64,000 bases of DNA, from the NCBI RefSeq assembly GCF_017348835.2, contig NZ_CP071375.1. One strand, given 5' to 3'. The first letter of the stretch is position 1. The number at the start of each line of letters is the position of its first letter. This stretch comes from Escherichia coli (GTDB taxonomy: Bacteria; Pseudomonadota; Gammaproteobacteria; Enterobacterales; Enterobacteriaceae). Positions 57,101 to 60,100 of this stretch are shown here, one piece after another. A program made the position numbers.

Positions 57101-60100
57101 CATCTGCCCCGGCGACTGCTGAAACTATGGATAAGGCGGAATATCTGCGCCTGGACTGCACCATCAAGGAAGTTCAGTTCACCGCCGGTCAGAAACAGGA
57201 TATTGATGTGACCACGCTCTGCTCCACAGAGCAGGAGAACATCAACGGTCTGGGGGCGTCGTCCGAGATTTCCATGTCGGGTAATTTTTATCTGAATCAG
57301 GCCCAGAACGCCCTGCGTGATGCCTATGACAATGACACGGTGTATGCGTTTAAGGTGCAGTTTCCGTCCGGTAAGGGCTTTAAGTTCCTGGCGGAAGTGC
57401 GTCAGCACACCTGGTCATCCGGTACCAACGGCGTGGTGGCTGCAACGTTTTCACTTCGCCTGAAGGGTAAACCGGTGTCCTATGTGGTACCGCTGGCGTT
57501 TGTGAAAAATCCGGAGAAGACACTTACCGTGAATACCGGTGCGCTGCTGACAATGTCAGTCAGTGTCAACGGGGGAACGCCGCCTTATAAACACGCCTGG
57601 AAGAAGGATGGTCAGCCGGTAGAGGGACAGACTACTGACACTTTCAGTAAAGCCAATACGCAGTCAGGTGATAAGGGGGCTTATACCTGCGAGGTAACGG
57701 ATTCTGCAGAACAGCCGCAGAGCATTACCTCTGATGCGTGTACAGTAACGGTTAATGGTGCGGGCGGATAAGGCTTATGGCAAAAGATCTGAAAACACTG
57801 GCGCTGGCCAGACTGTCGGGGTTCCGTCATAAAACGGTGAAGGTGCCGGAATGGAGAAATGTCAGCGTGGTGCTGCGGGAGCCTTCGGCAGAGGCCTGGT
57901 ATCTGTGGAAGGAAGTGCTCAATGGTGATGGAGAGGATGACGATACCCTGTCGGTGGTGGCGAAAACCCGCCGTAACCTGGAAGCGGATGTGACGCTGTT
58001 CTGCGATGTCCTGTGTGATACTGACCTGCAACGGGTGTTCACTCCGGACGACCGTGAGCAGGTGCTGGCCGTCTATGGTCCGGTACATGCCCGGTTGCTG
58101 CGTCAGGCACTGGAACTGATCGCTGATGCAGAGTCGGCCAGAAAAAAGTAGCCCGCCCGGAAATTCGCTTTCTGATGCGACTTGCGCTCCGTCTGGGGCG
58201 CACCTTATCCGAACTGCGGCACAGCCTGAGTGCGAGCGAGGCGATGATGTGGATGGAGTTCGACAGGGTATCCCCGCTGGGTGATGAGCGCGGGGATATC
58301 CGTAATGCGCAGATCGTGAAAGCGGTTTTCGGGGCACAGGGGATGAATGTTGCACTGAAGGACGCCATGCTCTGCTGGGGCGAGGATGAGGATAAGCCGG
58401 AGGTGGATCCGTTTGCGGCGCTGGAAGACGCGCTGAGCCTTGCAGCAATGTCATAAATAATGATGAAAACCTGCTGTGGCAGGTTTTTTTTGCCCGGAGA
58501 AAGGTGAATGGCGACGTTACGTGAACTGATTATCAAAATTTCGGCAAATTCACAGTCATTCCAGTCGGAGATCCAGCGGGCGTCCCGTATGGGCAGTGAA
58601 TATTACCGGACCCTGCAGAATGGCGGACGTCAGGCTGCTGCGGCAGCCAGGGAGCAGCGCCGGGCTCTGGCTGAGCTGCACAGCCAGTTGACGGAAATCC
58701 GCGCTTCGGCTGTCGGAATGACCGGTGCGTTTGCCGGTGCCTTTGCCACCGGACACCTGATTTCGCTGGCGGATGAATGGAGCTCCGTGAATGCCCGTCT
58801 GAAACAGGCGTCGCAGTCATCGGATGAATTTGCGTCATCACAGAAAGTGCTGATGGATATCAGCCAGCGGACAGGCACCGCATTTTCGGATAATGCGGCC
58901 CTGTTTGCCCGTTCGGCTGCCTCGATGCGTGAATATGGTTACAGTGCTGATGATGTGCTGAAGGTGACGGAGGCCATTTCGACAGGGCTGAAAATCTCCG
59001 GTGCCAGTACGGCAGAGGCGGGCTCGGTGATCACCCAGTTCAGTCAGGCGCTGGCGCAGGGTGTATTGCGTGGTGAGGAGTTTAATTCGGTCAATGAAAG
59101 TGGTGACCGGATCGTACGTGCACTGGCTGCGGGTATGGGCGTGGCCCGTAAAGATCTGAAGGCAATGGCGGATGACGGAAAACTGACAGCGGATAAAGTG
59201 GTCCCCGCGTTAATCAGCCAGCTGGGGATATTACGTGATGAATATGCGGCCATGCCGGAAACGGTTTCCAGTAGTATCACAAAGGTGGAAAACGCCTTTA
59301 TGGCCTGGGTGGGCGGTGCGAATGAGGCCAGCGGGGTGACAAAAACGCTCTCCGGCATGCTGAACGGTGTTGCCGGACAGATTGATAATGTGGCAACAGC
59401 CGTGGGCGCGCTGGTTGCCGTCGGGGTTGCCCGGTACTTTGGCAATATGGCCTCCGGAGCGATGTCTGCCACGGCAGGACTTGTGACGGCTGCACGTAAT
59501 GAAGTTGCACTGGCGGAAGCACAGTTCAGGGGAGCGCAGATTGCCACGGCGCGGGCAAGGGCAGCCGTGTACCGTGCTCAGCAGGCCGTGGCGGCAGCCC
59601 GCGGGACGGAGATGCAGATTGCTGCAGAGGCCCGTCTGGCGGCCACACAGGAACGCCTGAACAGAAATATTGCTGCCAGAAGCGCCGCCCAGAATGCGCT
59701 GAACAGTACAACGGCGGTGGGCTCACGTCTGATGAGCGGTGCGCTGGGGCTGGTTGGTGGCGTACCCGGACTGGTGATGCTGGGGGCTGCAGCATGGTAC
59801 ACGCTGTACCAGAATCAGGAGCAGGCCAGGGAGTCTGCGCGCCAGTATGCACTGACGATAGATGAAATCGCGCATAAAACGCCGTCAATGTCTTTGCCTG
59901 AAGCCTCAGATAATGAAGGACGAACACGGGCGGCGCTGACAGAGCAGAACCGGCTGATTGATGAACAGGCCAGTCGGGTGAAATCCCTGCAGGAAAAAAT
60001 CGCAGGATATCAGTATGTTCTGGCGAACCCGGGCTGGACGACCGGTGACGGATTCATGATAAACCATCTGACCTCGGTGAAGACCGTAACGGAAGGGCTT

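Follow-up and report, generated by a model that had tools for sequence, protein, structure and literature searches.

At the end of the tail assembly chaperone gene G, in the 64,000-nucleotide (nt) stretch of the Escherichia coli contig NZ_CP071375.1 (RefSeq assembly GCF_017348835.2) that is called the window here, the sequence A_AAA_AAG is read as a programmed -1 ribosomal frameshift site of a G/GT-type tail assembly chaperone pair, of the HK97 gp13/gp14 subfamily, in a Stx-type lambdoid E. coli prophage; a probability of about 0.95 is assigned to this reading. It is carried by the geometry of the reading frames, by the families to which both halves of the predicted fusion protein belong, by the conservation of the site, its register and the peptide encoded in the -1 frame, and by the identity of the sequence to a reporter cassette for which 7% frameshifting has been measured. 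G/GT frameshifting is a textbook mechanism that is widely conserved in long-tailed phages, and the G/GT-type -1 frameshift in tail assembly chaperone genes is reportedly treated by Levin (1993) and by Xu, Hendrix and Duda (2004). The phenomenon, the HK97 subfamily and the exact sequence are already in the literature, and nothing in this respect is new.

The zero-frame codons that close G, established by inspection of the sequence and a check of the frame, are GCC AGA AAA AAG TAG. The heptamer starts 7 nt ahead of the stop codon and is in the register X_XXY_YYZ with respect to G. The original prediction, made from the sequence alone, had given the heptamer, its coordinates (58142-58148) and its register correctly, but it erred in placing the site three codons before the G stop, because no codon intervenes between AAG (58146-58148), with which the coding part of G ends, and TAG. 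The -1 frame contains a stop codon at 58124-58126 and is then open from 58127 up to the next stop at 58454-58456, and the resulting overlap with the frame of G is the only stretch that permits a productive shift. The annotated downstream open reading frame (ORF), which begins with the ATG at 58175 and is called T, shares the -1 frame, and the open frame runs through it. Counting gave 102 sense codons gained after the slip, in agreement with the roughly 100 codons predicted, and thus a G-T fusion of 226 amino acids (aa), comprising the 124 residues of G and 102 more. A -1 stop codon between 58148 and 58175, which had been named as the observation that would disprove the idea, is not present in the sequence. 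Two features of G/GT-type pairs are thereby found, namely a slippery X_XXY_YYZ sequence in the correct register within the overlap and a downstream ORF in the -1 frame that overlaps the 3' end of the upstream ORF, here by 25 nt.

Profile searches assigned both halves of the fusion to families. G matches PF06222 (Phage_TAC_1) with 204 bits (cut-off 25; E 7e-61) over profile positions 1-124 of 124, the tail assembly chaperone group phrog_344 (E 2e-45) and the PDB entry 2OB9, 'Tail assembly chaperone' (E 7e-46). The T segment matches PF06223 (Phage_tail_T) with 68.7 bits (cut-off 25.9; E 6e-19) over profile positions 1-70 of 73, as well as phrog_337 (E 5e-42), and the latter match already covers the -1 segment from residue 4 on, ahead of the annotated ATG. 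A further profile, phrog_14766, has 224 positions and is matched by G at positions 1-122 and by T at positions 125-222, and thus spans both halves. The gene order is V-G-T-H-M, with M/L/K-type tail tip genes beyond the tape measure gene, and the two small ORFs are flanked by the major tail gene and the tape measure gene, as is typical of G/GT-type pairs.

Frameshifting has been measured on the very same sequence. In the study of Antonov et al. 2013 (PMC3711429), candidate cassettes were placed between GST and MBP, and the fusion product was measured in E. coli. The cassette of fs-gene 15618692, which fell into the 'Phage_TAC' cluster, a group likened to an HK97 protein, gave 7% +/- 0.79 of -1 frameshifting (PMC3711429, Suppl. 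Table S2), and a sequence comparison revealed that its 75-nt insert is identical to 58122-58196 of the window. A second cassette of the 'Phage_TAC' cluster, with the ECP1-like sequence G_GGA_AAG_CCG_TAA, gave 6% (PMC3711429).

The site is conserved among close as well as distant relatives. A search of IMG/VR that was seeded with G proteins only yielded 80 loci with 67-100% identity, and AAAAAAG with TAG directly behind it occupies the same position in each of the 80, despite differing flanking codons; the relatives at 67-69% identity contain a longer A run, ttAAAAAAAAg, with 8 A. In addition, 13 annotated loci were compared, which include the window and one near-identical Stx phage and represent phages of Escherichia, Enterobacter, Salmonella, Klebsiella, Vibrio, Burkholderia and Bordetella. 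The identity of G among the diverged loci is 31-67% in the alignment. A_AAA_AAG or G_GGA_AAG is in register within the overlap in 10 of the 13, and the remaining three have a near-heptamer ending in A_AAG. G_GGA_AAG is found at the homologous site in ECP1, Fraca and FSL SP-016, and G_GAA_AAG at the homologous codon in HK97 and LAU1. The direct succession of AAG and a stop codon extends beyond the IMG/VR set to vB_EcoS-569R6, FSL SP-016, Vibrio Pm34 and one Klebsiella phage. The -1 peptide KKVARPEIRFLM is kept across genera in the alignment and aligns from the slip codon on, with the pattern KKV-A-x-P-x-x-R-F-L-M-x-L-A-L-R, in phages of six host genera, before any ATG. The site and the arrangement of the frames are therefore shared by diverged relatives.

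Three loci of the comparison deserve separate mention. The Klebsiella phage ST147-VIM1phi7.2 (MK448232.1, 978-990) has no canonical heptamer, and its 10-nt overlap contains only A_GCA_AAG, followed by TAA, so that only tRNA-Lys would be able to re-pair; the sequence suggests either a single-tRNA slip beside the stop codon or another route to T expression. In HK97 (AF069529.1, 949-957), the gp13 frame reads CGG GAA AAG, that is, the non-canonical G_GAA_AAG, and the strict G_GGA_AAG register is not there; re-pairing of tRNA-Glu on GGA would use a G.U pair at the middle position. One IMG/VR locus (IMGVR_UViG_3300029191_000019) drew attention because of a -1 frame of 319 codons, which was traced to a deletion in a degraded prophage and is irrelevant to the mechanism: at about 1872-2831, T is truncated after ...RLGRTL and continues in frame into a homolog of the window ORF 62532-63536 (tail-tip K-like C40 peptidase region), and this prophage no longer contains the tape measure gene or the M and L genes.

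Table 1. Features at and around the frameshift site (positions in the window)
Feature	Position	Strand	Basis
G, tail assembly chaperone of the HK97 gp13 type, zero-frame product of 124 aa	57777..58151	+	ORF; Pfam, PHROG and PDB matches
Slippery heptamer A_AAA_AAG, in register X_XXY_YYZ, zero-frame codons AAA AAG	58142..58148	+	Sequence and frame check
TAG stop codon of G, abutting the 3' end of the heptamer	58149..58151	+	Sequence; may contribute as a 'shifty stop'
25-nt overlap shared by the G frame and the open -1 frame	58127..58151	+	-1 stop at 58124-58126, G stop at 58149-58151
T segment, 102 codons in the -1 frame and stop codon at 58454-58456	58148..58456	+	PF06223, phrog_337
G-T fusion coding sequence, predicted, 226 aa	join(57777..58148, 58148..58456)	+	Frame reading
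ATG annotated as start of T, probably an internal Met (conserved F-L-M motif)	58175..58177	+	No Shine-Dalgarno motif; conservation upstream
Major tail tube protein with C-terminal Ig-like domain, upstream of G	57055..57771	+	phrog_158 (E 1e-117); Pfam Ig_2/Ig_3/I-set, Phage_tail_2
Tape measure protein, 1080 aa, downstream of T	58508..61750	+	PF06120 (E 1e-90), PF20155 (E 6e-58), PF09718 (E 2e-17), phrog_339 (1388 bits)

Several points were considered as possible objections to a frameshift at this site. A stimulatory RNA structure downstream of the heptamer was considered and rejected, because the fold of 58149-58260 (-39.3 kcal/mol) is no better than the mean of shuffled sequences (-38.3 kcal/mol; z = -0.30). 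Upstream, the stretch 58122-58141 (GCTGATGCAGAGTCGGCCAG), inspected by eye only, contains neither GGAG nor GAGG nor AGGA and thus no evident Shine-Dalgarno (SD)-like element. The reporter assay was performed with a short insert instead of the natural transcript of an induced prophage, and alone it does not separate ribosomal from transcriptional slippage. Direct evidence of GT protein made by this prophage was not found. In addition, the RefSeq/PGAP and GenBank records of near-identical phages and prophages (three examined) list G and T as two coding sequences without a join. It should be noted that the lack of a downstream structure and of an evident upstream SD-like element fits the low efficiency of about 7% as well as the situation in lambda, and it was therefore not counted as contradicting the frameshift. 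Likewise, the RefSeq record of lambda lists G and T separately, and separate coding sequences thus reflect annotation habit and are not evidence; database joins, which are found neither in the Stx phage and PGAP records nor in RefSeq lambda, turned out to be uninformative as a test.

If a common A-rich heptamer had come to lie beside an open alternative frame by chance, it would have no function. AAAAAAG is indeed common, with 26 occurrences counted over the two strands of the window versus 12.4 expected (dinucleotide-preserving shuffles, none of which reached 26), and this roughly twofold excess is probably due to a Lys codon usage rich in A and to AT-rich sequence between genes, not to recoding. 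The presence of the bare heptamer thus carries no weight, and its count was dropped as evidence in favour of position and register. The six-frame ORF list also includes several other in-register heptamers with long -1 extensions, but most of them are on the minus strand inside the plus-strand late gene region, and the only case inspected, the plus-strand ORF 29310-29696 (A_AAT_TTA 7 nt before the stop, 60-codon -1 extension), was rejected as a second frameshift candidate, as it is a shadow ORF opposite a real minus-strand gene of 823 aa. In contrast, about 0.001 in-register heptamers would be expected in a 25-nt overlap (6 in-register positions; 12 plus-strand copies per 64 kb), and the site is the only in-register X_XXA_AAG among the roughly 4,400 codons of 14 real late genes. 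Furthermore, the first A of the heptamer is contributed by AGA, and AGA and CGA together make up 10.8% of the Arg codons of the late genes, while the order AAA-AAG is used in 3 of their 12 Lys-Lys pairs. This codon choice at R-K-K and the uniqueness of X_XXA_AAG were read as nucleotide-level selection and counted as support. The conservation of site, register and -1 peptide across genera and the frameshifting measured on the identical sequence have effectively refuted chance already. A separate T gene that is started at the ATG at 58175, perhaps by termination-reinitiation, with the heptamer being incidental, would agree with the annotation of a separate 93-aa 'phage tail assembly protein T' by RefSeq/PGAP and GenBank, and with the presence of an in-frame ATG about 23-24 nt past the G stop. 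However, no SD motif is found within 25 nt upstream of this ATG, whereas V, H, M and the gp10-like gene each have one, so that, at the level of sequence, T lacks initiation signals of its own, a further feature of G/GT-type pairs. Moreover, the residues preceding the ATG, V-A-R-P-E-I-R-F-L, are conserved across genera, with the Met belonging to the conserved F-L-M, and the first ATG stands anywhere from 1 to 17 codons past the G stop in the aligned relatives. T is therefore read as a continuation of G and not as a separate gene, because the residues in front of the ATG are conserved, the ATG itself shifts in position and an SD motif is lacking. The phrog_337 homology that begins ahead of the ATG, the fusion produced from the identical cassette, the annotation of HK97 gp14 solely as a fusion and the description of only gpG and gpGT for lambda (PMC5009743) also speak against an independent T, which is quite improbable, and a free T of 93 aa is unlikely to be produced.

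Two further explanations accept that the -1 frame is expressed from the heptamer and differ in how this would come about. RNA polymerase might slip on the A run and lose one A or gain two; the homopolymeric run, the 8 A of the relatives at 67-69% identity and the inability of the published reporter to tell the two routes apart would be in line with this. However, the run at the site has only six A, whereas programmed realignment is tied to longer runs (A n>7; general knowledge and PMC3711429), and at the same codon ECP1, Fraca and FSL SP-016 have G_GGA_AAG, with 3 A, and HK97 has G_GAA_AAG, all of which are sites that only the ribosome could use. The ECP1-like cassette was similarly active, and the register of the heptamer is strictly conserved, which matters for the re-pairing of tRNAs but not for slippage of the polymerase. 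Transcriptional slippage is thus very unlikely, because only six A are present and the homologous G_GGA_AAG sites behave alike. The other explanation is a variant of the ribosomal mechanism, namely a 'shifty stop', in which a single P-site tRNA-Lys would slip on A_AAG during the slow decoding of the TAG in the A site. It is suggested by the position of TAG directly after AAG in the window and throughout the IMG/VR loci, by the recurrence of AAG plus stop in four other diverged lineages, and by the A_GCA_AAG_TAA of ST147-VIM1phi7.2, where only the Lys tRNA could re-pair. On the other hand, the phages of Burkholderia and Bordetella as well as HK97, ECP1 and lambda reach the same outcome with slip sites that lie 1-11 codons ahead of the stop, and the efficiencies of A_AAA_AAG_TAG and G_GGA_AAG_CCG_TAA are similar. 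Conservation of the full heptamer, with a first A that stems from the uncommon codon AGA, suggests that the P-site AAA matters, and the conserved Val (GTN) of the -1 frame partly accounts for the T at the next position. A functional role of the conserved AAG-stop placement as a 'shifty stop' is a minority possibility, and tandem tRNA-Lys slippage is the best-supported reading of the exact molecular event.

According to the programmed frameshift mechanism, most ribosomes translating G would read AGA AAA AAG and terminate at TAG, producing the 124-aa chaperone. A few percent would slip backwards by one base on A_AAA_AAG, and the tRNA-Lys(UUU) molecules on AAA and AAG would re-pair with AAA AAA. 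In E. coli, tRNA-Lys(UUU) holds AAG weakly, as has been established from dnaX and lambda G/GT. After the slip, translation would continue in the -1 frame with GTA GCC CGC... for 102 codons and yield the 226-aa G-T fusion. The rate of slippage is known to be modulated by the thiolation of U34 of tRNA-Lys (PMC3296357). In lambda, G binds the tape measure protein, as does the G part of GT, T recruits the major tail protein, and the slip rate sets a low ratio of GT to G; both proteins are needed for tail assembly and are absent from virions (PMC5009743). By analogy, many copies of G together with the G part of GT would coat the tape measure protein of the present phage and the T domain would recruit the major tail protein, with a fixed low GT:G ratio set by the frequency of slippage. 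These chaperone roles are expected to apply to its G and GT, which would likewise be required for tail assembly and left out of the virion.

Among characterized systems, HK97 gp13/gp14 is the one under which the pair is correctly filed. Protein identity is about 60% over the whole G-T fusion, both parts belong to the same Pfam families, the genes likewise have the major tail gene on one side and the tape measure gene on the other, and the -1 shift occurs at the homologous codon (...AREK|V... in HK97, ...ARKK|V... in the window). The annotation of HK97 gp14 reads 'translated due to a -1 frameshift' and gives a two-piece join. The two differ in that the HK97 site is G_GAA_AAG, five codons before the stop in a 52-nt overlap, whereas A_AAA_AAG of the window abuts TAG in a 25-nt overlap, and in that a moron gene of HK97, gp15, which has a putative terminator of its own, separates gp14 from the tape measure gene, whereas the window has a 51-nt spacer with a terminator-like hairpin. 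Another annotated counterpart is Bcep176 gp69/69', which is labelled as the lambda G / T equivalent.

The original prediction had stated that the site reproduces the lambda G/GT mechanism, and this claim was upheld, with two refinements that concern the family of G and the heptamer. The window and lambda share the position in the order V-G-T-H, the -1 direction, a heptamer of the class ending in A_AAG that is decoded by tRNA-Lys(UUU), and the lack of a detected stimulatory structure that would be required. The frameshift efficiency is about 4% in lambda (PMC3296357), compared with 7% for the window cassette. However, lambda uses G_GGA_AAG five codons before a TGA stop, whereas A_AAA_AAG of the window abuts the stop. 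Lambda gpG is a member of PF06894 (Phage_TAC_2; E 9e-62), whereas G of the window matches only PF06222 at E<=0.01 and does not belong to PF06894. Thus, a Pfam family in common with lambda exists for the T moiety only; lambda T also matches PF06223 (54.1 bits). Direct homology to lambda was sought by BLASTP and rejected (E 7.4 for G, no match for T), so that the Pfam profile alone links the T parts. The pair appears to work like that of lambda, with a G that lies outside the lambda gpG family. Identity of the heptamer is found with dnaX of E. coli, which encodes tau and gamma and uses A_AAA_AAG in the -1 direction with the same host translation machinery (PMC3711429). Frameshifting in dnaX reaches about 50% by virtue of an upstream SD-like element and a downstream hairpin (PMC3711429), and of the elements of such a cassette the window has the heptamer but not the downstream hairpin. 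Furthermore, the shift truncates the protein in dnaX, whereas it extends the protein in the window.

The element that carries the pair is a Stx-type lambdoid E. coli prophage. The region 57000-58600 has 99.3-99.7% nucleotide identity to Stx-converting and related phages (Stx2_EH1910, BP-4795, Stx2a_WGPS2), and such prophages do not differ from the window in any relevant respect. Of 5426 complete E. coli genomes, 1245 carry the G-T segment, often in more than one copy and with as many as 7 per genome.

Some observations concern the neighbouring genes. The Ig-like domain (Ig_2/Ig_3/I-set) of the major tail protein comprises residues ~149-233 and is fused in frame; for the homolog of this gene (57055-57771), the GenBank record of BP-4795 gives a longer N-terminal start (846 nt vs 717 nt). 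Between the T stop (58456) and the start of the tape measure gene (58508), a terminator-like hairpin is present at 58465-58491 on the plus strand (AAAACCTGC-TGTG-GCAGGTTTT, with a U run behind it, 8 T in total), with a folding energy of -14.5 kcal/mol (z -2.3 vs shuffles). It is situated inside the late operon, just ahead of the tape measure gene, and could be the scar of a moron insertion or an attenuator that reduces tape measure expression relative to V and G. Further upstream, the ORF 54136-55521 (plus strand, 461 aa), located between the portal and head-tail adaptor genes, contains at 54352-55052 a 162-bp tandem repeat with 4.3 copies that match to 97% and encode 54-aa repeats. The protein has no convincing Pfam family, with repeat-inflated weak matches and a weak C-terminal match to CBM_5_12. 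Its homolog in Stx2a_WGPS2 has 407 aa and is shorter by exactly 54 aa, one repeat unit; the repeat copy number thus appears to differ between phages, and the label 'portal protein' of that homolog looks like a mis-annotation. The ORF 50626-52563 (plus strand, 645 aa) is the sole capsid-type gene in the interval from the large terminase gene to the portal gene; it is unusually long, precedes the portal gene and has a homolog in Stx2a_WGPS2 that is labelled 'major capsid protein'. It may encode a fused protease/scaffold-capsid protein.

If the conserved stop codon were to act as a 'shifty stop', the GT:G ratio would be tied to the efficiency of termination, that is, to RF1 activity, as well as to the modification of U34 of tRNA-Lys. 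Relatives such as ST147-VIM1phi7.2 would then use a single-tRNA slip in the P site that needs the stop codon, and this would represent a mechanistic sub-variant of G/GT frameshifting that is not described as such in the literature surveyed. Irrespective of this, the practical value of the finding lies in annotation: the second product of the locus is most likely the 226-aa fusion join(57777..58148, 58148..58456).

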